DNA of 64,000 nucleotides, from positions 7,182 to 71,181 of the forward strand of contig PWJQ01000035.1 in NCBI GenBank assembly GCA_003560875.1, given 5' to 3'. This stretch comes from Methanomassiliicoccaceae archaeon (GTDB lineage Archaea; Thermoplasmatota; Thermoplasmata; Methanomassiliicoccales; Methanomethylophilaceae). Positions 9,635-29,836 of the stretch are shown here, piece after piece (position 1 is the first letter of the stretch; every line of letters begins with the position of its first letter). The notes below the pieces were generated by a model. It saw only the letters and a list, made by a program, of their open reading frames with translations, did not search any database and was not told where the DNA came from. The position numbers and the translations under genes are program-made.

Positions 9635-9738
9635 CGTCAGCTCATGGTGGTGGCGCCTATAATTGGGTTTTGTTACAGTCGGGGTCAGAAACGATATTAT
9701 GTAACGATGTTGATTCATTCCGGTTGAAATTGCATCAT

Positions 9739-12261
9739 GTGGTAGGACTGGCAGACCTGGGCGCTGACGCCCTGGAGACTGTGGGCGGTAAAGCGAGCAA
9801 CCTTGCGGTCATGTCCCGTGGGGGCATGCCGGTACCGGATGCCTTCGTGATATGCACATCGGCCTACCATCTTTTCCTGGAGGAGACGGGCCTGGGCGCC
9901 AAGATCTCATTCCTTCTCGATAAACTGGATTTCAACGACCGGGAGGAGATGGCCGCTGCCGCGGAGCGGATTCAGACCATGATATCGTCCCAGGTCATGC
10001 CCTCCTCCTTGAAGGAAGAAATCGATGAGATGGCCTTGGGACTCGGCGGACTGTTGGCGGTGAGGTCCTCGGCGGTGGCCGAGGACATGCCGGATGCCAG
10101 TTTCGCCGGTCAGCAGGACTCCTTCCTCAACGTGGAGGCGACGGACGCATCCGTATACGCCCGACGTTGCTGGGCCTCCTATTGGAACGAGAGGGCGATG
10201 ATCTACCGTCACGATGCCCGGGTGCCGCACATGGAGGGCGGCATGGCGGTGCTGGTGCAGAGGATGGTGGACTCCCGTGCCTCCGGCATAATGTTCACCG
10301 TCGATCCAGTCACCGGCGAGGATCGTACCGTCATCGAATCGGTCCGTGGTCTCGGTGACCGTCTGGCGAGCGGGGAGGCGGCACCGGACCGCTTCGTGGT
10401 CTCCCGCGACGGTACCGTGGTGGTGGCCGATGACGCCGACGGCCTTTCCATAAGTGATGCCGAGGCGACGATGCTCTCAATGATGGGCGCCGACCTTGAG
10501 CGCCTATTCGGTTCACCCCAGGACGTGGAGTGGGCTTTGGACTCTGACGGTGTGAAACTGCTACAGTCCCGTCCGGTCACCACCGTCGCCGAGGACGACG
10601 GCATACTGTGGACCCGGGCCTACGGTGATGAGTACTGGGCCGATGCCACAACTCCGCTGTTCTTCTCCGTCATGGGTCCGATGCTCACCGATTACGTCAA
10701 CCACGAGGGCGCCCGCATAATGGGATACAAGGCCATACAGGACAGTCCCCTGCTACGGTTGCACAAATCGCACATTTACTTCAACACCTGGGTCCTGGAG
10801 CAGGCTTTCAGTTACTACCCCCGCTACGCCCGTTCCAAAGAACTGCTCAACTACTATCCTGCAAGCGAGAGGGAGAGGATCGCCCGTTCACCGTCCCGCA
10901 CCGGCATGGCATTGATGTCGCAGCTACGGGTGGCGGTGCGCGACCCTGACGGGATGCTAAACCGGACCGACCAGGCTTACAAGGATTGGGCATCCCGCTT
11001 CATGAAGCAGTGCCTGCGCTTCGACCGTCTGGACCTAGCGGCGATGGACTACGGACAGCTGAAGCGCGTGTATGCGGAGATCGAGGGTGCGGCCATCGGC
11101 CATTATCGTCTGATACGTTATGGGATGGTCTCCCATTCCATAGCATCCAACATGATCGTCAAACAATGGCTACGTTCGTGGCTGGATGATGATAGCGGCG
11201 AGCTCTACTCCAAACTGATCTCCGGCCTCCGTGGCAACAAGACGCTGGAGACCAACGTGGCGCTGTCGAAGTTGTCGTTGCACGCCGCCAAGGACCGCCA
11301 TGTGGCCGCCGCCCTGAGGTCCATGGACAACGAGGAGTTCATGAATGCCATGAGAGACGACCCGATGCTCGATAACTTCCATGAGCATCTGGACGAGTTC
11401 CTCTACGAATACGGCCACCGTTCACACACCCGGGAGATCATATATCCCCGCTGGTCGGAGGATCCGGGAATGGTGCTCGACGTCCTCCGTGTACTGCTCG
11501 AATCGCCTACCGACCTCTCCAAGGTGGAGGACACCAGGGTAGGGGAGAGGTTGGAGGCGGAGAAGAAGGTCTTCTTGGCGTTGAGAGGGATGAAGGCGGG
11601 CAGGGTGAGGGCTATCGTTTTCGAGAAGGTCCTCCGTCTGGCCCAGACATATCTGCTGTTCCGGGAGAACCAAAGGTTCTTCCTGGACCACATACTGTTC
11701 CGCCAACGACTGATACTCAAGGAGTACGGGAACAGACTGCGGGACGACGGCGTCATCGACGATAGCGAGGACGTGTTCTTCCTTGAGCTCAAAGAGGTCT
11801 TCGCCCTTCCCGGTGAGGATCCGCGGAGACTGATCGCACAACGCCGCCGCGACTTCATGCGCCATCGTGACGCCTTGCCTCCTAAATTCCTCAGAGGAAG
11901 GATGGAGTTCGATGACACCGTCACCCGCATGGATGATTCCACGGTCATACAGGGTAGCGCCGCCAGCCCCGGTGTGTTCCGTGGCAGGGTACGGGTGGTC
12001 TCATCGGTCCGTGAGCTTTCCGCGGTCGAGAAGGGCGATGTGTTGGTGGCGTCCAACACCGACCCGGGATGGACGGCGGTCTTCCATCGCTTGGGAGGGC
12101 TTGTGACCGAAACTGGAGGCATACTGTCTCACGGTGCCGTTGTGTCCCGGGAATACGGCATTCCCGCCGTCACCGCCGTCAAAGGCGCCACAACGGTATT
12201 GAAGACCGGTCAGATGATAACCGTGGACGGCAACGAGGGAGTAATCAGATTGGAGGAATGA
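9739..12261 (+). CDS. PEP-utilising-enzyme-family dikinase with N-terminal ATP-grasp (PPDK_N), long central domain and C-terminal phospho-histidine swivel domain (rifampicin-phosphotransferase-like architecture)
   Basis: N-terminal GGKASNL and AVRSSAVAEDMPDASFAGQQDS. C-terminal GDVLVASNTDPGWTAVF and TETGGILSHGAVVSREYGIPAV (catalytic His). No PEP/pyruvate TIM-barrel domain. The start is uncertain: the track uses TTG 9670, and GTG 9739 lies ~37 nt after a gatattatg TATA-like box. Confidence 0.75.
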   Translation: MVGLADLGADALETVGGKASNLAVMSRGGMPVPDAFVICTSAYHLFLEETGLGAKISFLLDKLDFNDREEMAAAAERIQTMISSQVMPSSLKEEIDEMALGLGGLLAVRSSAVAEDMPDASFAGQQDSFLNVEATDASVYARRCWASYWNERAMIYRHDARVPHMEGGMAVLVQRMVDSRASGIMFTVDPVTGEDRTVIESVRGLGDRLASGEAAPDRFVVSRDGTVVVADDADGLSISDAEATMLSMMGADLERLFGSPQDVEWALDSDGVKLLQSRPVTTVAEDDGILWTRAYGDEYWADATTPLFFSVMGPMLTDYVNHEGARIMGYKAIQDSPLLRLHKSHIYFNTWVLEQAFSYYPRYARSKELLNYYPASERERIARSPSRTGMALMSQLRVAVRDPDGMLNRTDQAYKDWASRFMKQCLRFDRLDLAAMDYGQLKRVYAEIEGAAIGHYRLIRYGMVSHSIASNMIVKQWLRSWLDDDSGELYSKLISGLRGNKTLETNVALSKLSLHAAKDRHVAAALRSMDNEEFMNAMRDDPMLDNFHEHLDEFLYEYGHRSHTREIIYPRWSEDPGMVLDVLRVLLESPTDLSKVEDTRVGERLEAEKKVFLALRGMKAGRVRAIVFEKVLRLAQTYLLFRENQRFFLDHILFRQRLILKEYGNRLRDDGVIDDSEDVFFLELKEVFALPGEDPRRLIAQRRRDFMRHRDALPPKFLRGRMEFDDTVTRMDDSTVIQGSAASPGVFRGRVRVVSSVRELSAVEKGDVLVASNTDPGWTAVFHRLGGLVTETGGILSHGAVVSREYGIPAVTAVKGATTVLKTGQMITVDGNEGVIRLEE

Positions 12262-12262
12262 C

Positions 12263-13156
12263 ATGGAGGATTTCACACCCCAGATGCCAGGCAAGGAAGA
12301 GGATTGGAGCGAGAGCCTCTATTTCAACTTCCATGACCGCGAGAATGACATCACGGCGTTCATGCGTATCGGCCTGAAACCGAACCGCGGTCACAAGGAG
12401 GCTTTCCTGTTCATCATGACTGAGGATATGGTGTGCGGCATGCGCTCCGCCATTCCTATCGGGGATGGCGACATGTCTGTCAACGACCTGTCCTTCCGAA
12501 AGGAGGGAAGCGGTTGGAGATTGTCTTACAACGGTCAACTGGGAAGCATGACCGAGGACGGACCCATACCGATCGAGGCCTCACTGGACATCTTATGGAC
12601 TCCTCTGAACGAGGAGTTCGACTACCGTCGCTGCGTGGATGAAAGGGCGGAGAAGATGGCCGCGGCAGTGGCCGCCGAACACCGTGAACAGTACGGTGAG
12701 GCGGTGGGTGCGGTGAGTCTGGGTTCCAAGCGGCTCCGCGTCAGAGGCCTGGGCGAACGTGACCACAGTTGGGGCGTCCGCGATTGGAACGCCCCTCGGG
12801 AGTGGATGTGGATCAACTGTCACCTCGACCGTCGCACATCCCTGAACCTGACACGCCTGGTCGTTGACCAGGGGGAGGTGGTGGCGGGATTCGTTCATCG
12901 TGATGGAGAGAGCCATCCTATCGTGAGGGCTAGGGTCGAGACCCGCTACTCGTCCAAAGGCGGACCGCAGTCCTTCGACCTGGATATCACCGATTCCGAA
13001 GGGAAGCGCCACATCATCGGCGGGAGCGTGGTCAGGGAGACGGTGCTGCCCTTCGAGAAGGATGGTGTGCGCAGTCTGCTCTTTGAGACGCTGGCGGAAT
13101 ACGATTGGAAAGGCGGGAAGGGCTACGGCATAGCCGAGTATCTCATCCGTACCTGA
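12263..13156 (+). CDS. Hypothetical protein, translationally coupled to the dikinase
   Basis: ATG lies 1 nt after the dikinase stop. The 297-aa soluble product carries WSESLYFNF and GERDHSWGVRDW segments. No family assigned by eye. Confidence 0.6.
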   Translation: MEDFTPQMPGKEEDWSESLYFNFHDRENDITAFMRIGLKPNRGHKEAFLFIMTEDMVCGMRSAIPIGDGDMSVNDLSFRKEGSGWRLSYNGQLGSMTEDGPIPIEASLDILWTPLNEEFDYRRCVDERAEKMAAAVAAEHREQYGEAVGAVSLGSKRLRVRGLGERDHSWGVRDWNAPREWMWINCHLDRRTSLNLTRLVVDQGEVVAGFVHRDGESHPIVRARVETRYSSKGGPQSFDLDITDSEGKRHIIGGSVVRETVLPFEKDGVRSLLFETLAEYDWKGGKGYGIAEYLIRT

Positions 13157-20827: not shown

Positions 20828-20938
20828 GCCGCGGAACTCGCTCACAACCGCTCCCGTGCGACCGTGTCATGCAATGGTTGGATGGACAGTATTATATGTC
20901 GCGAAAACGAACATTCTCTTTATTCTCAAGGTGGGATA

Positions 20939-22393
20939 ATGACGAAAAAAATGACTACCAACAACGGCGCCGTGATCGACAACGACCTGAACAGCGTCAC
21001 CGCCGGTCTACCAGGGCCGGTATTGATACAGGACGTGCATCTCGTGGAGAAGCTCGCCCATTTCAATCGCGAAAGGATACCGGAGAGGGTCGTGCATGCC
21101 AAAGGGGCGGGCGCCGGTGGATACTTCGAACTCACCAAAGACGTCTCGAAATGGACAAAGGCCAAGTTCCTGTCCGAGGTGGGGAAGAAGACGGAGGTCT
21201 TCGTCCGATTCTCGACCGTGGGCGGGGAGAAGGGCTCCGCCGATGCTGAGAGGGACCCACGGGGGTTCGCCATCAAGTTCTACACCGAGGACGGTAACTA
21301 CGACCTGGTGGGTAACAACACCCCGGTCTTCTTCATCCGCGACCCGGTGAAGTTCCCGGACTTCATACACACCCAGAAGAGGAAACCGGGTAGCAACCTC
21401 AAGGATGCGGACATGTTCTGGGACTTCCTTTCCCTCACACCGGAATCGGTGCATCAGGTGACCATCCTGTTCTCCGACCGTGGAACTCCCCGCACCTACC
21501 GTAACATGAACGGTTACGGCAGCCACACCTACAAATGGTACAACGACGCCGGAGAGCAGTTCTACGTCAAATACCACTTCAAGACCGACCAGGGAGTGGA
21601 CAACTTCACCATGGAGGAGGCCGAGGTGATGAAGGGCAAGGACCCCGACAGCGCCACCAGGGACCTGCACGAGGCCATCGCCCGTGGCGACCCGCCGTCC
21701 TGGACCCTACAGGTGCAGATCATGACCCCCGAGGAGGCCGAGGAGTACCGTTTCGACCCCTTCGACGTCACCAAGGTCTGGCCCCACGGGGACTATCCGG
21801 TGATGGACATCGGCCGGATGGTCCTGGACCGCAACCCCGGCAACTACTTCGCCGAGGTGGAGCAGGCGGCATACGCGCCCAGTAACTTCGTGCCTGGAAT
21901 AGCCGCCTCACCGGACAAGATGTTACAGGGGAGGCTCTTCGCCTACCCCGACGCCCACCGCTACCGCCTGGGCGCCAATTACACGCAGCTGCCGGTCAAC
22001 GCCCCCAAGGCGGCGAGGATGAACAACTATCAGCGCGACGGCCCGATGCGTTTCGACGGCAACCTCGGGGACGGTCCCAACTACTGGCCCAACAGCTTCG
22101 GTGGTCCGGATCCGGTGCCTGACAGCGGCGAGCCGATGTTCGAGGTGTCCGGCAAGGCCGGCAGACAGCCCTATATCCATCCCAACGACGACCACGTCCA
22201 GGCCGGGGACCTTTACCGCAAGGCGATGAATGACCAGGACCGTACGAACCTGGTGAAGAACATCGTCGCCCATCTCGGTAACGCCCGTAAGGACATCCAA
22301 GTCCGCCAAGTCAAGATATTCCTCAAAGCGGATGAGGAGTACGGTGGCCGCGTCGCTGAAGGATTGGGCCTGAGCGCATCGGACCTGCAGTGA
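20939..22393 (+). CDS. katA: Monofunctional haem catalase
   Basis: [23 protein letters not shown] (distal His), RGFAIKFYT and [14 protein letters not shown] (proximal Tyr region). ATG 20939 has GGTGG 5 nt upstream. The track ORF starts at 20864. Confidence 0.93.
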
Positions 22394-24528: not shown

Positions 24529-25560
24529 ATGATTGAGGTAGATGGTTCCAGAGGTGAAGGGGGAGGGCAGATAGTGCGTACCTCCATCGCCCTGGCCGCT
24601 CTGACCGGCGAGGAAGTCAGACTCACCAACATACGCGAGAACCGCCCTACCCAGGGACTCTCCCGTCAGCATTGCACCGCCATCGAAGCGGTGGCCGATA
24701 TGAACGAGTCCTGGGTGTCCGGCAACGTCCCCGGATCTCGGGAGATGGTCTTCCGCCCCGGGGTGGGCGGTAGAGGGAATGTCTGCATGGACGTCGGTAG
24801 CGCCGGCAGCATAAGCCTGGTCCTGCAGGCCATGCTGCTCTGCGCCCAATCCCATGATTCCCGGGTCACAATGGACATCAAGGGCGGGACCAACGTGAAA
24901 TGGGCCCCGCCCATCGACTTCTATCCTCAGGTCCTGTTCCCTCTTCTTTCGAAAATGGGCATAAGGGCGGAGATGGAGATAATCAGCCGCGGTTTCTACC
25001 CCCAGGGCCAAGGCCATGTGCGGGTGACCTTCGACCCGGCCAAAAGGATCGAGCCTTTGCGCATCGATGATTTGGGGGAGATACGTGAGGTCAATGCGGT
25101 GAGCTACTGCCAGAACCTCCCGCCGCGCATAGTGGACGAGATGGCCTGGTCCTGTCAGGAGATGCTCTCCGACATCGCCGTTCTCAATGCGGAGAGGGAC
25201 ATCCGTCAGGGCGGCTCCACCGGGGCGGGAATCTCCCTGGTGGCCGTCCACCGCAACGGCATGGTCGGCGCCAGTGCGCTAGGCTCTCGCGCAAACCCCG
25301 CCCGTTTGGTCGGCGAGGAGGCCGCCAAGGATCTGATCGTGGAATTGGAGGGAGGAGGCACCTTGGACGTCCATGCCGCCGACCAGCTGGTCCCCTACAT
25401 GGCGCTGGCGGAGGGCGGTAGCGTGTTCAGGGTCTGGCGCATCAGCAAGCACCTCCTGAGCCAGATGGACCTTCTGGAGACCTTCCTCGATGTGAAATTC
25501 CATATCAGCCGTCTCCCCAAAGGATACCGTATCGAGGTCGAACCGGGAGGGAAGGGATGA
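24529..25560 (+). CDS. rtcA: RNA 3'-terminal phosphate cyclase
   Basis: DGSRGEGGGQIVRTSIALAALTG and NRPTQGLSRQH (adenylylated His) are diagnostic. Confidence 0.92.
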   Translation: MIEVDGSRGEGGGQIVRTSIALAALTGEEVRLTNIRENRPTQGLSRQHCTAIEAVADMNESWVSGNVPGSREMVFRPGVGGRGNVCMDVGSAGSISLVLQAMLLCAQSHDSRVTMDIKGGTNVKWAPPIDFYPQVLFPLLSKMGIRAEMEIISRGFYPQGQGHVRVTFDPAKRIEPLRIDDLGEIREVNAVSYCQNLPPRIVDEMAWSCQEMLSDIAVLNAERDIRQGGSTGAGISLVAVHRNGMVGASALGSRANPARLVGEEAAKDLIVELEGGGTLDVHAADQLVPYMALAEGGSVFRVWRISKHLLSQMDLLETFLDVKFHISRLPKGYRIEVEPGGKG

Positions 25561-26180
25561 TCAGGGTTATCGTGAACTGCGCCATGAGCGCCGATGGCAA
25601 GATAGCGGGCTGCGACCGCCGACAGACCAGGATCTCCACACCGGAGGACATGCAACGGGTCAAGGCCCTGCGGCGGTCGGTGGATGCGATAATGGTCGGC
25701 GTAGGGACCGTGCTGGCGGATGATCCCCATCTCACGGTGAAACACCTCGGCCCGGATGAGAACCCGGTACGCGTGGTGATAGATTCCAAAGGCAGAACGC
25801 CGGATTCAGCATTGGTGCTGGACGGTCGCGCCCGGACCTTGGTGTTCCACGGCGAGGGATGCGACCGCATGTGGGAGGGCGCGGAGTCATTCGTCTGCGG
25901 ACGTGACCGTGTCGACCTGCGGCGTATGCTCGGTATCCTGGAGGAGATGGGCATCGCAACGCTCATGGTGGAGGGGGGCGGCGAGTTGATAGCCTCCCTT
26001 TTCGACGAGGACCTGGTGGACGAGTACAACGTCTTCATCGGCCCGATGGTCATCGGCGGCCGGTGCTCCCCCACGCCCGCGGACGGCGACGGAAGGGATG
26101 GTAAGGATGCCATCCGTCTGCGCTTCGCCGGTTCAGAGGTCCTGGGCGAGGGCGTCCTACTGAGATATCTACGTATTTGA
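25557..26180 (+). CDS. 2,5-diamino-6-ribosylamino-4(3H)-pyrimidinone 5'-phosphate reductase (RibD C-terminal domain type, ArfC-like)
   Basis: VIVNCAMSADGKIA, VDAIMVGVGTVLADDPHLTV and LMVEGGGEL. It aligns by eye with the M. jannaschii MJ0671-type reductase. ATGA overlap with rtcA. Confidence 0.82.
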   Translation: MIRVIVNCAMSADGKIAGCDRRQTRISTPEDMQRVKALRRSVDAIMVGVGTVLADDPHLTVKHLGPDENPVRVVIDSKGRTPDSALVLDGRARTLVFHGEGCDRMWEGAESFVCGRDRVDLRRMLGILEEMGIATLMVEGGGELIASLFDEDLVDEYNVFIGPMVIGGRCSPTPADGDGRDGKDAIRLRFAGSEVLGEGVLLRYLRI

Positions 26181-26191
26181 ACACCGATTCG

Positions 26192-26212
26192 AACATTTTA
26201 TGTACAAATGTT
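26192..26212 (+). promoter_or_regulatory. Perfect 7-bp inverted repeat AACATTT-N7-AAATGTT overlapping a TATA-like element upstream of the DapA-Fae genes
   Basis: The sequence is aacattt tatgtac aaatgtt, located 21-41 nt upstream of ATG 26233. It is a candidate operator/promoter. Confidence 0.4.
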
Positions 26213-26232: not shown

Positions 26233-27660
26233 ATGTTCAAGGAACCCATCTTCAGCGGAGTCTACGCATCGCTGGTAACACCTTTCGACGCCGATGAGGG
26301 CGTCGACGAGTCCGCCCTGAGGAAACTCATCTCACGCATGGTCGGAGAGGTGGACGGACTGGTGGTCTGTGGTGCCGAAGGGGAGTTCGAATACCTCTCC
26401 GATACGGAGCGACGCAGGGTGATCGCCGTTGCCGTGGACGAGGTGGCGGGAAGGGTGCCGTTGATCGTCGGCACCGGCTCGGCTAGCACCCGCCTGGCTT
26501 GTCAACTGTCATCCTTCGCCGAAGAAGCGGGGGCCGATGCGGTCATCGTTTCCACACCCTACTTCCTGTTCCCTGCCGACAAGGGATATCATCAACACTT
26601 CCTCGAGGTATCAAATTCCACATCCTTGCCGATGATCGTCTACAATCCCATGGAGACCTGCATCGGTCGCATACCCCGGAAGGTCCTGGAGGACATATCC
26701 TACTTGGATAACGTGGTTGCACTGGCGGATTCCTCGGGCGACATGCCGTACCTCATGGAGGTCATCGAGAAGGTGAAGGGCAGGATGGACGTCCTGGTGA
26801 GTAACGAGGAGACCGTGTATCCCTCCCTGTGCGTCGGATGCTCGGGTATGATACTGGGTAGCGCCCAGGTCTATCCGTCGTTGTGGAGGGGGATGTTCAA
26901 TTCCTTCGCGGATGGTGACGACGATCAGTCACGCATCCTACAGGCCAGGGTGCAGAAGCTCTCCCGCCTGTTCATGAGACACGGTCTGGCGGTGCCTTTG
27001 AAGGCGGCACTGAGGATGATCGGTGAACCGGTGGGCAAGGCCCGTGGTCCTTTGAAGGAGGGGGGCTCCCTGCTGCATGAGGACCGGGAGGAGATCAAGG
27101 TCGAACTGGAGAGGATCGGTATGTTGGAGCGCGCCGGCCAGTCCGTAACGGAATACGACATGCCCTTGAACGAGAGGTTCAGCGACATAGGTATCAGTCC
27201 CGCGGACATCCAGAGTCATGGCGTACGCCTGTCGTCGGCATCCCATGGCAGCGGGGAGGAGCGGGCGGTCATCGATATCGCCCTGGGCCGGAAGGACGGC
27301 CTCCTGGGCGACGTTTTCGCATCCCAGCTCGTATATCTCGATCACGGCAAGGAATCATTGCCCATCGTCCTGGAGCCGAACCTCGCCACCCTGCCACCGT
27401 GCCTGATCATCCCGGTCATGGAGCTGCGCAGCATGCGCCAGGCGAACATGGTCTACGGTCCGGCACAGGGCGCGATAGCCAAGGCCATCGTGGACCTCTG
27501 TGCCGAGGGCATGGTACCGCAGAGGGTGATGGATGAATGCATAATGCTGGCACGGGTGTTCATGGACCCCAACGCCCTCGACCGTTCCTCGATCTACGTG
27601 AACTTCCATCAGGCCACCCGCAAGGCCATGGAGGAACTGCTCAAGGAGGTGCCGCAATGA
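26233..27660 (+). CDS. Fusion protein: DapA/DHDPS-fold domain (Schiff-base Lys absent) + C-terminal formaldehyde-activating-enzyme (Fae)-like domain, paralogue 1
   Basis: The N-terminal ~300 aa show the DHDPS pattern (SLVTPFD, GRVPLIVGTGS, GADAVIVSTPYF, IVYN) but read VVALADSSGD where the family has IxGIKExxG. The C-terminal ~145 aa align with Fae (LEPNLATLPPCLIIP, YGPAQGAIAKAIVDLCAEGMVP, ARVFMDPNA...VNFHQATRKAM). ATG 26233 has GGTGAG upstream. The track ORF starts at 26200. Confidence 0.8.
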   Translation: MFKEPIFSGVYASLVTPFDADEGVDESALRKLISRMVGEVDGLVVCGAEGEFEYLSDTERRRVIAVAVDEVAGRVPLIVGTGSASTRLACQLSSFAEEAGADAVIVSTPYFLFPADKGYHQHFLEVSNSTSLPMIVYNPMETCIGRIPRKVLEDISYLDNVVALADSSGDMPYLMEVIEKVKGRMDVLVSNEETVYPSLCVGCSGMILGSAQVYPSLWRGMFNSFADGDDDQSRILQARVQKLSRLFMRHGLAVPLKAALRMIGEPVGKARGPLKEGGSLLHEDREEIKVELERIGMLERAGQSVTEYDMPLNERFSDIGISPADIQSHGVRLSSASHGSGEERAVIDIALGRKDGLLGDVFASQLVYLDHGKESLPIVLEPNLATLPPCLIIPVMELRSMRQANMVYGPAQGAIAKAIVDLCAEGMVPQRVMDECIMLARVFMDPNALDRSSIYVNFHQATRKAMEELLKEVPQ

Positions 27661-29105
27661 GGAGCTCCGACCTGAGAGGCGTCTTCGCGCCTCTGGTAAC
27701 ACCCTTCGACGAAGGTCTGAAGGTCGACGACGAGCGGTTGCGTGGACATGTGAGATGGCTCATGGGCCGCGTCGAAGGCCTGGTCTGCACCTCGGACGTC
27801 GGGGAGTTCGTACATTTGACTGAGACTGAGAGGGTCGAGGTCTGGAGATCGGTGATGGATGAGGTGGACGGGCGGGTTCCAGTGATCGTCGGCAGCGGTT
27901 CGTCGAGCACCAAGGTGGCCAAGGAACTCACCCTCAAGGCCGCTGAGATGGGAGTCGATGCCGCCCTTGTGGTCGACCCCTACTTCTACCGCAGCAGCGG
28001 CAAGGAACGCTACGAGCACTTCCAGGCCCTGGACGCCCTTGGCCTCCCGTTGATAAACCACAACGTCTGCCGCTACACCGGTGCGGAGAGGGAATGGTGG
28101 ACCACCGAGGGCATAGCGGCCTTGGAGAATGTCATCGGCATATTGGATGCCACCGGGGACATGGCCTACACCGCCACCTTGACAGAGAAGGTGGACGACG
28201 CCGCGATTCTGGCGGGCAAGGACGAGGTGGCGGCGATGGCACTGGCACAAGGCTGCAGCGCCGCCGTACCGCCCACCGCCAACTTCATACCCGACCTGTG
28301 GTCGGAGATATATGCGGCGATAGGTGCCAACGACCTCGACTCTGCCCGTTCTTTGCAGATGAGGATACAGAAGACATGTCGCATATCCCACACCTGCCCC
28401 CACCATGTGGCCAAGGCCGCCCTGTGGATGATGGGGCGGGACATGGGACGACCTGCACCCCCGGCGCTGCCCGGCGACAACTTCCTGCATGAGGACTGGG
28501 ATGAGCTGCGCCATCAGTTAGCAGGGCTCGGATTGCTGGACACCAAGAAGGTTCGCATGACAGTCGGTGATGCGTCCTGGGACAGCACCGTGGCATCGAT
28601 ACCGCACACCCCTGACTCCGTCGACCTGCGGATGCTGATCGGCGAAGCCTATTCCGGTCCGTCGGCGCATGAGGCGGCACACGTTGACCTGCTCATCGGC
28701 AGCGACGATGGGCCGGTGGGGAGGGCCTACGACGCGTCGTTGCTAAATGACCGGGAGGGCAGGGTCAGGGAGCTGATGTCGATGCCCCGTTGCATGGTCG
28801 TGCCAACGGTGACAGCGAGGACGGCGAAGCAGAAGAGACATATGGAGCTGGCCTCCGCCGGGGTGGTCCAGGCGGTGGAGGAGGCGGTCGGTGACGGTTT
28901 CCTGCCCCGCGACATGCTGGACCGTATCCGCTTGATCGCCAACGTGTTCGTGCACCCCGGCGCTGCCAACGAGAGGCGCATCCGGGTGAACAACTACAAG
29001 GCCATGCGCAACGCCATAAGGAGGGCGGTGGAGGGAAGACCCCACGCCGAGGAACTGGTGTGGCTGAAGGACTCTGTGAGACACCCCACCCGCTACACGC
29101 CTTAA
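27657..29105 (+). CDS. Fusion protein: DapA/DHDPS-fold domain (Schiff-base Lys absent) + C-terminal Fae-like domain, paralogue 2
   Basis: ATGA overlap with paralogue 1, and AAGGAGGTG lies 5 nt upstream of ATG 27657. N-terminal PLVTPFD, GRVPVIVGSGS, GVDAALVVDPYF, and VIGILDATGD in place of the K motif. The C-terminal domain matches Fae strongly at both ends (MLIGEAYSG...EAAHVDLLIGSDDGPVG; NVFVHPGA...NNYKAMRNAIRRAVEGRP...HPT). Confidence 0.8.
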   Translation: MRSSDLRGVFAPLVTPFDEGLKVDDERLRGHVRWLMGRVEGLVCTSDVGEFVHLTETERVEVWRSVMDEVDGRVPVIVGSGSSSTKVAKELTLKAAEMGVDAALVVDPYFYRSSGKERYEHFQALDALGLPLINHNVCRYTGAEREWWTTEGIAALENVIGILDATGDMAYTATLTEKVDDAAILAGKDEVAAMALAQGCSAAVPPTANFIPDLWSEIYAAIGANDLDSARSLQMRIQKTCRISHTCPHHVAKAALWMMGRDMGRPAPPALPGDNFLHEDWDELRHQLAGLGLLDTKKVRMTVGDASWDSTVASIPHTPDSVDLRMLIGEAYSGPSAHEAAHVDLLIGSDDGPVGRAYDASLLNDREGRVRELMSMPRCMVVPTVTARTAKQKRHMELASAGVVQAVEEAVGDGFLPRDMLDRIRLIANVFVHPGAANERRIRVNNYKAMRNAIRRAVEGRPHAEELVWLKDSVRHPTRYTP

Positions 29106-29836
29106 TAGATGGGCTCGATGATGAACTTGCAGTAGTTGTAGGCGATACCGAAGCACTCGTTCTCCGAGATGCGGAAACGACGACCGGTCTTCTCCTCCAG
29201 TACGGCCTTGAAGACGCCTTCGTGGAACATGCACAGCTTATTGCCGGCCTCGGCGTTGGTCTCGTATTCGTCACGGATGATTATGGTTAGTGGCACGAAG
29301 GTGTAGACACATACCTCGCCCAGATCGTGCATCTCATAGAACTCCTGCAGTTCGGAGACGATGTTCTCCACATCGGTGGATTCCATCTGAGTGGAGAGGG
29401 CCTTACCGACCTCGCTGCCCACCTCGTACATGGCCGGGTCGATGGCCAGTCCGATGGCTTCCAATCCTATCAGTATCGAGCGCATCAGTCCTTTCAGGAA
29501 CGATGACGGTGTCCCGGCGGAATCCAGGACGGTCTGGTGCATGTACTCCATCATCTCCTCCGAGGGGTTCGTGGCCTTGGCCACCGGTTTGGAGGATAGG
29601 AAGAATATCTTACGGCGGTTGTCGGAGGGGTCGTCCCTTGAGAAGACCAGTTTCTCCTTCACCATCTTATCCAGATGAACTGACAAGGTGGATTGGGCCT
29701 TGCCGGTTATGTTCGCGATCTCCGTCAGGGACAGGTCCTTAACCTGCAGTTCGGCTAAAATCCTCTGCCGTACTGGGTTACATATCTGTTTCAAACCGGA
29801 ACTGGTCGAATAGATTTCGAATGCAGGATTGTCCAT
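29102..29836 (-). CDS. ArsR-family winged-HTH regulator with C-terminal V4R domain (MsvR-like architecture)
   Basis: N-terminal ICNPVRQRILAEL...LSLTEIANITGKAQSTLSVHLDKMVKEKLV (ArsR wHTH). The C-terminal domain has four Cys (EVCVYTF, KLCMFHEG, ENECFG, NYCKF) in a V4R-like pattern. Its stop overlaps the stop of 27657..29105 by 4 nt (convergent). Confidence 0.75.
   Translation of the reverse strand: MDNPAFEIYSTSSGLKQICNPVRQRILAELQVKDLSLTEIANITGKAQSTLSVHLDKMVKEKLVFSRDDPSDNRRKIFFLSSKPVAKATNPSEEMMEYMHQTVLDSAGTPSSFLKGLMRSILIGLEAIGLAIDPAMYEVGSEVGKALSTQMESTDVENIVSELQEFYEMHDLGEVCVYTFVPLTIIIRDEYETNAEAGNKLCMFHEGVFKAVLEEKTGRRFRISENECFGIAYNYCKFIIEPIY

Follow-up and report, generated by a model that had tools for sequence, protein, structure and literature searches.

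A tandem gene pair joining DHDPS-fold barrels to Fae-fold domains in a Methanomassiliicoccaceae archaeon, a derivative of a widespread and uncharacterised family

Two adjacent genes in a 64,000-nucleotide stretch of DNA from a Methanomassiliicoccaceae archaeon (GenBank assembly GCA_003560875.1, contig PWJQ01000035.1, positions 7,182 to 71,181 of the forward strand; the whole of this stretch is referred to here as the window) each encode a protein in which a barrel of the dihydrodipicolinate synthase (DHDPS) fold is followed by a domain of the formaldehyde-activating enzyme (Fae) fold. What are such proteins, and are both of their halves enzymes? A sequence-only reading of the window had proposed that they could be an undescribed pair of aldehyde-condensing or C1-carrier-linked enzymes, both parent folds being known for aldehyde or imine chemistry. 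The analysis presented here leads to a different answer, namely that the locus, far from being a lone fusion whose halves are both active, is a derivative pair belonging to a widespread and uncharacterised family.

The two genes, whose products we refer to as the alpha and beta subunits, and the signals at their junction are as follows:

26233..27660, + strand: gene 1, alpha subunit, 475 aa from the ATG at 26233 (open reading frame list)
27657..29105, + strand: gene 2, beta subunit, 482 aa (open reading frame list)
27657..27660, + strand: ATGA, the overlap of the gene 1 stop with the gene 2 start (read from the sequence)
27643..27651, + strand: AAGGAGGTG, a Shine-Dalgarno-like sequence for gene 2, located 5 nt ahead of its ATG and within the 3' end of gene 1

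Both open reading frames and their overlap lie where the sequence-only reading had placed them, and every motif quoted in that reading is present in the two translations. The ATGA overlap points to translational coupling of genes 1 and 2. Gene 1 is itself preceded by GGTGA 5 nt 5' of its ATG, and an alternative, longer reading of this gene starts at 26200 and encodes 486 aa. The hmmscan comparison with Pfam that had been proposed as a check was run, and it assigned DHDPS (PF00701) and Fae (PF08714) in both proteins, with all four domains scoring 4-8 times the gathering scores (22.1 for DHDPS and 27 for Fae):

26251..27060, + strand: DHDPS-fold domain of alpha, aa 7-276 (Pfam E=1.4e-55, 188.5 bits)
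27244..27657, + strand: Fae-fold domain of alpha, aa 338-475 (Pfam E=4.1e-32, 111.8 bits)
27672..28472, + strand: DHDPS-fold domain of beta, aa 6-272 (Pfam E=2.8e-46, 158 bits)
28638..29090, + strand: Fae-fold domain of beta, aa 328-478 (Pfam E=3.4e-30, 105.6 bits)

The C-terminal 140-155 residues of both proteins align end to end with Fae of Methylorubrum extorquens (PDB 1Y5Y), which matches the C-terminal domains at E=1.6e-16 (alpha) and 1.2e-19 (beta). At the other end of the chain, DapA structures are the best PDB matches to the barrel, and in an AlphaFold model of beta (predicted local distance difference test score 87, predicted template modelling score 0.86) the barrel superposes on DapA structures with a template modelling (TM) score of 0.93 (Foldseek; 2yxg). 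The same model folds the beta linker into a beta-hairpin, not a loose tether. Alpha thus consists of a DHDPS-fold barrel, a linker of ~40 aa and a Fae-fold domain without the C-terminal arm, and beta of a DHDPS-fold barrel, the beta-hairpin linker and a Fae-fold domain with the arm; the two are 31% identical across their full length. Against NF009833, the model for Fae-Hps, in which Fae is joined to a barrel of hexulose-6-phosphate synthase, the proteins score 103.7 and 77.9 bits (cut-off 274), and the Fae part alone accounts for the match.

The extent of this architecture bears directly on whether the fusion is a peculiarity of one genome, and it is not: the window pair is a divergent member of a family with relatives in 410 of the species-level genomes scanned (one genome per GTDB species). 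The best 80 of these 410 genomes comprise ~70 Chloroflexota (mostly Anaerolineae), 9 Thermoplasmata or Methanomassiliicoccales and 1 bin labelled Myxococcales. Of the candidates scored in a homologue search with beta as the query, 199 clusters reached E<=1e-5, and DHDPS and Fae are both present in 120/120 of the clusters that were listed, most of them of ~490 aa; the sources name family members 'DapA', and one member is labelled Baldrarchaeia. By an exhaustive phmmer search of 1.84 billion 50%-identity representatives, ~13 full-length two-domain representatives were found, with window alpha and window beta forming separate clusters of their own, and the DHDPS::Fae family is, on the evidence of these searches, a compact one. 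No paper on the architecture was found in the full-text literature of PMC and bioRxiv, NCBIfam holds no model for the family, and the DapA-type and Fae chains of the PDB are all stand-alone, with no DHDPS::Fae chain among them; the earlier statement that no characterised DapA-Fae enzyme is known is borne out in these three sources.

Wherever database gene calls were checked (loci L004, L005/6, L007, L008 and L009/10), the genes lie head to tail in the order alpha, beta, and clustering of the open reading frames of the 80 genome loci recovers the tandem pair likewise wherever the contig permits. Among these called genes, 1-6 nt lie between the end of alpha and the start of beta, except that L009/L010 overlap by the same 4 nt as the window genes. 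We define alpha as the upstream type (465-486 aa, no tail) and beta as the downstream type (482-500 aa, with the tail A-R-H-P-F-R-Y-x-P). The window shares this family layout in having two domains per protein, adjacent alpha and beta genes, a beta tail of the form R-H-P-[FT]-x-Y-x-P, and an alpha without a tail in which EPNL and RQ..GPxQ are present. A neighbour-joining tree resolves two clades, one of alpha and one of beta sequences; both contain archaea and bacteria, and their branching is congruent. Alpha and beta of one locus are 37-46% identical across the family, and the window pair forms the family's longest branch, a branch that is long in both clades. The duplication thus predates all known members, and the tandem arrangement is ancestral and near-universal. 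An old duplication of which both copies have been kept had already been proposed for the window alone, and the two clades and the tandem loci extend this to the family as a whole. A 50% representative, P0369 (L094:785-2275), carries both alpha-type and beta-type Fae motifs in one chain; its contig is only 2.4 kb long, and there is no alpha gene upstream of P0369 there. P0369 may be a homomeric family member in which alpha and beta have not differentiated, and it would fit a history in which a complete ancestor was subfunctionalised into alpha and beta.

What distinguishes the two subunit types becomes clear when their C-terminal domains are set beside Fae itself. The sequence-only reading had given both proteins one shared layout; the Fae domains of the pair are, however, not equivalent, and each holds just half of the canonical Fae motifs. 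Compared column-wise with M. extorquens Fae, 54 genome-derived alphas and 60 genome-derived betas show Glu11, His22, Asn117, Phe119, His121, Asn133, Asn134, Lys136 and the arm Arg163-His164-Pro165 to be 98-100% conserved in beta only, and the P58-x-L60 loop, R78, Q79, G85, P86 and Q88 to be ~100% conserved in alpha only. The alpha-only conservation also covers residues 43-53, E57, L77 and A80 (Fae numbering), and the E57-P58-x-L60 loop is deleted in all beta subunits. Asp24 is conserved in alpha and beta alike, while the His22 position of family alphas, which are without the C-terminal arm, is mostly Gln. In canonical Fae the whole motif set lies on one chain.

The window pair follows the same division. 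Its beta subunit keeps Glu330, His342, Asp344, Phe431, His433 and an arm of R-H476-P477, which correspond to Fae E11, H22, D24, F119, H121 and the arm R with H164 and P165, and it is without the 58-62 loop and Gln88. Its alpha subunit has Val346 at the His22 position and Asp348 at Asp24, has no C-terminal arm, and keeps the EPNL loop (Pro382) and R402-Q403...G409-P410-x-Q412 (Fae R78, Q79, G85, P86 and Q88). The His22 and Asp24 pair is complete in window beta (His342, Asp344), and the His is missing in window alpha; conversely, Gln88 with G85-P86 is found in alpha only and the R-H-P arm in beta only, so that the full set would require a shared site. Fae is reportedly a homopentamer in which methylene-tetrahydromethanopterin is bound in the cleft between adjacent subunits, and His22 is said to have been proposed as the acid catalyst, with Gln88 flipping and the C-terminal arm becoming ordered upon binding (Acharya et al. 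2005). Because the motif halves are complementary and the Fae cleft, as so reported, lies between subunits, the pattern points to a single composite Fae-type site at each alpha/beta interface, with each chain forming one wall.

The barrels tell a different story. Family members carry a class I aldolase set consisting of Thr44-Thr45 (GTTGEF), Tyr133 (YN) and the Schiff-base Lys161 (xGxKDSSG), in E. coli DapA numbering. All four residues are kept in 54/54 alpha and 60/60 beta genome-derived subunits, and in 118/120 of the listed beta clusters, the two exceptions being window beta and its 88% relative; they are likewise kept in 11/11 of the other full-length 50% representatives, and the Lys in 6/6 alpha-type representatives. 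The Schiff-base lysine, which is the defining DHDPS residue and had been overlooked in the sequence-only reading, is absent from both window proteins. Window alpha reads GAEGEF / YN / ALADSS, with Ala48 and Glu49 for Thr44 and Thr45 and with Tyr137 (equivalent to Tyr133) kept; window beta reads SDVGEF / HN / GILDAT, with Ser46-Asp47-Val48 for Gly-Thr44-Thr45 and His135 for Tyr133. The codons at the lysine position, together with that of a new lysine in beta, are:

26725..26727, + strand: GCG, Ala165 of alpha at the position of the Schiff-base Lys161 (alignment with family alphas)
28143..28145, + strand: TTG, Leu163 of beta at the position of the Schiff-base Lys161 (alignment with family betas)
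28218..28220, + strand: Lys188 of beta in place of the invariant GHDE His (DapA position 187); present in the window and in L009, with 0% Lys in the family

An alignment artefact as the explanation for the missing lysine was considered and rejected, given that ALADSSG and GILDATG align with xGxKDSSG without gaps and that no Lys lies within 3 residues. The same substitutions occur elsewhere only in L009 (GCA_007128455.1), a relative that is 88-89% identical and fully syntenic. Furthermore, ~30 family-conserved barrel positions per subunit have been replaced (for example YNIPQ by YNPME or HNVCR, and GHDE by SNEE or GKDE), as against 6-7 in each Fae domain, all of them conservative. The window barrels do retain the GxGE, PY[FY] and N134 motifs of the superfamily of DHDPS and N-acetylneuraminate lyase (NAL). 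Since Lys161, Thr44 and Thr45 are lost in both barrels, and Tyr133 in beta too, Schiff-base aldolase activity is not expected in window alpha and is doubtful in window beta. Of the earlier proposal, then, the domain assignments stand, and aldehyde or imine chemistry by both halves does not, the catalytic residues of the barrels having been lost.

These losses have not been accompanied by decay. Relative to L009, the ratio of nonsynonymous to synonymous substitution rates (dN/dS) is 0.090 for each gene, at dS ~0.7, and 17 neighbouring genes range from 0.026 to 0.159. By domain, the ratio is 0.057 (alpha) and 0.084 (beta) for the barrels and 0.108 (alpha) and 0.084 (beta) for the Fae domains, with the linkers at ~0.19. 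Both genes and all four domains are under strong purifying selection. The lysine-less derivative, kept by selection, is known from the window lineage and the 88% relative only.

How such a pair might function can be approached from the family as a whole, for which the mechanism is inferred throughout from residue conservation. The complex would be a hetero-oligomer of alpha and beta, each a DHDPS-fold barrel fused to a Fae-fold domain. The family barrels are probably Schiff-base aldolases acting on pyruvate or another 2-oxoacid with formaldehyde as the aldehyde partner (4-hydroxy-2-oxobutanoate to pyruvate and formaldehyde, in either direction, would be an example), and a composite Fae site would transfer the one-carbon (C1) unit onto a tetrahydropterin or off it, following a logic like that of Fae-Hps. 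To this composite site, beta of the window pair would contribute His342, Asp344, Phe431, His433 and the arm, and alpha the 57-62 loop, R402, Q403, G409, P410 and Q412. In the window lineage the aldolase step would be gone, and the Fae-type site would load formaldehyde onto tetrahydrofolate (H4F) or a carrier like tetrahydromethanopterin (H4MPT), with the barrels kept as a scaffold for alpha/beta heterodimerisation or as a ligand-binding module. That the window pair carries out only a Fae-type condensation of formaldehyde with a tetrahydropterin is the reading we favour, at slightly less than an even chance; it appears the most likely function because the aldolase step seems to have been lost and the Fae-side residues are intact and selected.

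A number of observations weigh against this reading. Window beta lacks Tyr84 and has a short deletion around Fae positions 50-62. The assignment of Fae residues to the two sides of the cleft is our assumption, and the quaternary structure of the pair must differ from that of Fae, because a five-fold ring is impossible with alternating alpha and beta. Both C-terminal domains score just below the cut-off of the NCBIfam Fae equivalog-domain model (TIGR03126; 107.9 and 113.9 against 118.05), so that they have Fae family membership and not equivalog status. Nothing bearing on C1-carrier metabolism was found in the 64-kb window, nor any conserved gene context for the pair in the window lineage. Finally, constraint on the barrels is no weaker than that on the Fae domains, which may exceed what a passive scaffold requires, and beta has acquired a new conserved lysine, Lys188, on the strand next to that of Lys161.

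The last two points lend themselves to other explanations. One is that the barrels have been neofunctionalised for a non-Schiff-base activity or ligand, which would build on Glu49 of alpha and Asp47, His135 and Lys188 of beta, or that the complex is a sensor or regulator whose Fae-like site binds another ligand. In favour of this, purifying selection on the barrels is as strong as that on the Fae domains, or stronger (0.057 and 0.084), and the ~30 replacements per subunit were made in concert and later became fixed in the two lineages sampled. Both clades show a long branch for the window, and the genes fam1 and fam5, which lie upstream of the pair in other genomes, are absent from the 64 kb. 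Yet no evidence identifies a new active site, an obligate oligomerisation scaffold is also expected to be strongly constrained, and the conserved Fae-side residues are nearly untouched, which argues for an unchanged Fae-type function. On balance, this explanation, in either form, is unlikely, though of real weight. We consider it distinctly less probable that the pair is still the bifunctional aldolase-Fae that the sequence-only reading had in mind, with the Schiff-base lysine of beta moved to Lys188. Lys188 could be such a relocated catalytic lysine, as it adjoins the Lys161 strand, is kept in the window and L009, and sits in a strongly constrained barrel; furthermore, Wymer et al. in 2001 reportedly engineered KDPG (2-keto-3-deoxy-6-phosphogluconate) aldolase with its catalytic lysine on an adjacent strand. 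However, beta is also without Thr44 and Thr45, which bind the pyruvate carboxylate, and without Tyr133 of the proton relay; alpha has no replacement lysine near the segments of the pocket, and the canonical residue set is found without exception in all other members.

Loss of catalytic residues from both barrels, the longest branch in the family, and the absence of the usual partner genes from the immediate surroundings might also be taken to mean that the genes are decaying, non-functional relics encoding pseudo-enzymes. This is very improbable: both frames are intact in several independent assemblies, the translational coupling and Shine-Dalgarno-like sequence are kept along with the Fae-side motifs, and a dN/dS of 0.09 at dS ~0.7, equal to that of housekeeping neighbours, largely refutes it. 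The pair is not decaying, because its dN/dS falls within the range of the neighbouring genes; a pseudogene or assembly artefact was likewise rejected, as independent assemblies carry the same substitutions and so does the 88% relative. Hardly any credence can be given to the identification of the two proteins as ordinary 4-hydroxy-tetrahydrodipicolinate synthases (DapA), even though this is the name that the databases attach to members and DapA structures are the closest to the barrel in the PDB. Both proteins fall short of the cut-off of TIGR00674, the model for DapA sensu stricto (175.1 bits for alpha and 130.3 for beta, against 206.15), and Lys161 is absent in the window. The Arg138 with which DapA binds aspartate semialdehyde is replaced family-wide, with Cys, Val or Thr at this position across the family and, in the window, Thr in alpha and Tyr in beta. 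As the family lacks Arg138 and the window proteins lie below the DapA equivalog cut-off, the 'DapA' annotation is wrong for the DHDPS::Fae family as a whole.

Two genes recur beside the pair in other genomes. The first, fam1 (~316 aa), lies directly upstream of it in 17/80 loci from archaea and Chloroflexota (e.g. L011:7588-8529 and L023:7161-8111). This gene belongs to a group of more than 2,265 clusters, with 75-100% identity across archaeal classes, and its AlphaFold model is a TIM barrel whose nearest neighbours by Foldseek are distant (TM 0.45-0.5), namely metal-dependent 2-oxoacid aldolases or lyases such as class II fructose-bisphosphate (FBP) aldolase, PrpB and DmpG. The second, fam5 (~416 aa), is directly upstream of the pair in 7/80 loci, from Chloroflexota (e.g. 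L075:6657-7907), and a homologue (L094:1-765) precedes the single-gene P0369. The two are unrelated to each other, profile searches of Pfam, NCBIfam and the PDB gave no relative for either, and both are absent from the 64-kb window. Instances of fam1 without the pair are also found, one of them in an operon (L093) with AOR, an aminotransferase and homoserine dehydrogenase; the context of fam1 was set aside as a functional clue, being too thin, as the L093 operon is a single case and the L091 locus shows no link. The family, fam1 and fam5 might together make up an unrecognised C1 module of anaerobic Chloroflexota and Thermoplasmata, acting as a 2-oxoacid hydroxymethyltransferase in which a pyruvate Schiff-base aldolase would trade a hydroxymethyl unit with a tetrahydropterin by way of the split, heteromeric Fae-type site, and in which the window lineage would be aldolase-dead and left with formaldehyde activation alone; as a whole this is a speculative proposal that we regard as improbable. 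If true, it would link formaldehyde or methylene-pterin to 4-hydroxy-2-oxobutanoate and homoserine, and would give a Methanomassiliicoccales relative with Fae activity but without the classical H4MPT pathway.

The remaining contents of the window bear mainly on the host. Gene content is archaeal (TBP, Nop5, aIF5A, PolB, XPD, PurP and the RNA leader listed below), and the XPD helicase has its best named relatives exclusively among Methanomassiliicoccales, with identities no higher than 50-54%, in keeping with the earlier guess, made from the letters, of a Methanomassiliicoccales-type host; a divergent member of the Thermoplasmata near that order is indicated. Protein isoelectric points, examined with halophily of the host in mind, are ~5 and thus only moderately acidic.

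2931-2978, + strand: eL15-Euryarchaeota ribosomal-protein leader (Rfam; 39.4 bits against a gathering score of 33.7)

At 9670-13156 (+), a phosphoenolpyruvate-utilising enzyme of the PPDK_N type (863 aa) is followed immediately by a DUF7065/DUF7064 protein. A catalase gene (Pfam Catalase and Catalase-rel) lies at 20864-22393 (+) beside a transporter of the major facilitator superfamily, on a contig whose lineage has relatives among methanogens that are strict anaerobes. Immediately before the pair, at 24529-26180 (+), the RNA 3'-phosphate cyclase RtcA and an archaeal riboflavin-pathway pyrimidine reductase overlap by an ATGA of their own (25557-25560), an unexpected coupling of unrelated functions that is also present in the 88% relative. 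The latter, a RibD_C gene, was considered as a pterin reductase and rejected in this role, as it is an archaeal riboflavin reductase above the TIGR01508 equivalog cut-off. Downstream, a regulator with helix-turn-helix and V4R domains (29102-29836, -; 214 bits against the NCBIfam MsvR cut-off of 220) is convergent with gene 2, the two 3' ends overlapping by 4 nt. Beyond it, the segment 29947-31558 (+) holds MtnA, which exceeds the TIGR00512 cut-off, and, 1 nt further on, a protein of the class II aldolase fold; the latter passes no equivalog threshold, and its scores fall short of the FucA, ribulose-1-phosphate aldolase and MtnB models. These last two could belong to methionine salvage or to a pentose-bisphosphate-type route. 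A functional link of the pair to RtcA, the riboflavin reductase, the MsvR-like regulator, MtnA or the class II aldolase was rejected, as these are not its neighbours in other lineages.

To our knowledge, Fae is taken as a marker of C1 metabolism linked to H4MPT, and Fae-Hps is the only fusion that has been discussed so far. The DHDPS::Fae proteins add a second family of Fae fusions, which occurs in hundreds of uncultured species of Chloroflexota and Thermoplasmata under the annotation 'DapA'. It is unusual in that the Fae motifs are divided between two subunits that are obligately paired, and two conserved partner proteins accompany the pair. If an aldolase is indeed coupled to a pterin in this way, the family would provide a new point at which formaldehyde enters or leaves the metabolism of anaerobes, and many genome-based inferences on lysine biosynthesis and 'formaldehyde assimilation' would need correcting. 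Within it, the window lineage amounts to a natural separation-of-function mutant, with aldolase residues lost, Fae residues kept and both under selection, and a comparison of the window pair with a lysine-containing member would show the role of each half directly.

Among known systems, the DHDPS/NAL superfamily (PF00701) is the source of the likeness in the barrel, in fold (the TM score of 0.93 given above) and in overall sequence, and the other members of the DHDPS::Fae family keep its catalytic set. Unlike DHDPS and NAL, the window proteins are without the Schiff-base Lys, Thr44 and Thr45, the family is without the Arg138 of DapA, an extra Fae domain is present, and where the known enzymes are homotetramers the pair is probably an obligate heteromer. 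The aldolase-dehydrogenases DmpFG and BphIJ, in which channelling couples the source of a toxic, volatile aldehyde to its consumer, are alike in concept only; the folds and chemistry are unrelated, and the analogy would apply to lysine-containing family members and not to the window lineage. With Fae itself (M. extorquens; PDB 1Y5Y/1Y60; EC 4.2.1.147) the C-terminal domains are homologous over the entire Fae length. Fae, however, is a free-standing homopentamer of 170-aa chains that each hold all motifs, and it binds H4MPT and speeds up its condensation with formaldehyde, whereas in the pair the motifs are split and each chain bears a 300-aa barrel; furthermore, the Chloroflexota and Thermoplasmata that host the pair are known neither as methylotrophs dependent on H4MPT nor as classical methanogens, and the carrier may differ. 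In architecture there is a likeness to Fae-Hps of methanogens and other archaea, in which a Fae domain is also fused to an aldolase-type TIM barrel, one that handles formaldehyde; there it has been suggested that Fae 'might immediately capture formaldehyde' freed by the barrel, with capture on a pterin being proposed (PMC5241800). Fae-Hps is nevertheless built the other way around, as a single gene with an N-terminal Fae and a Mg-dependent barrel of the OMP-decarboxylase/Hps type, whereas the pair described here has a C-terminal Fae, a barrel of the Schiff-base DHDPS/NAL type that appears catalytically disabled, and two paralogous subunits.

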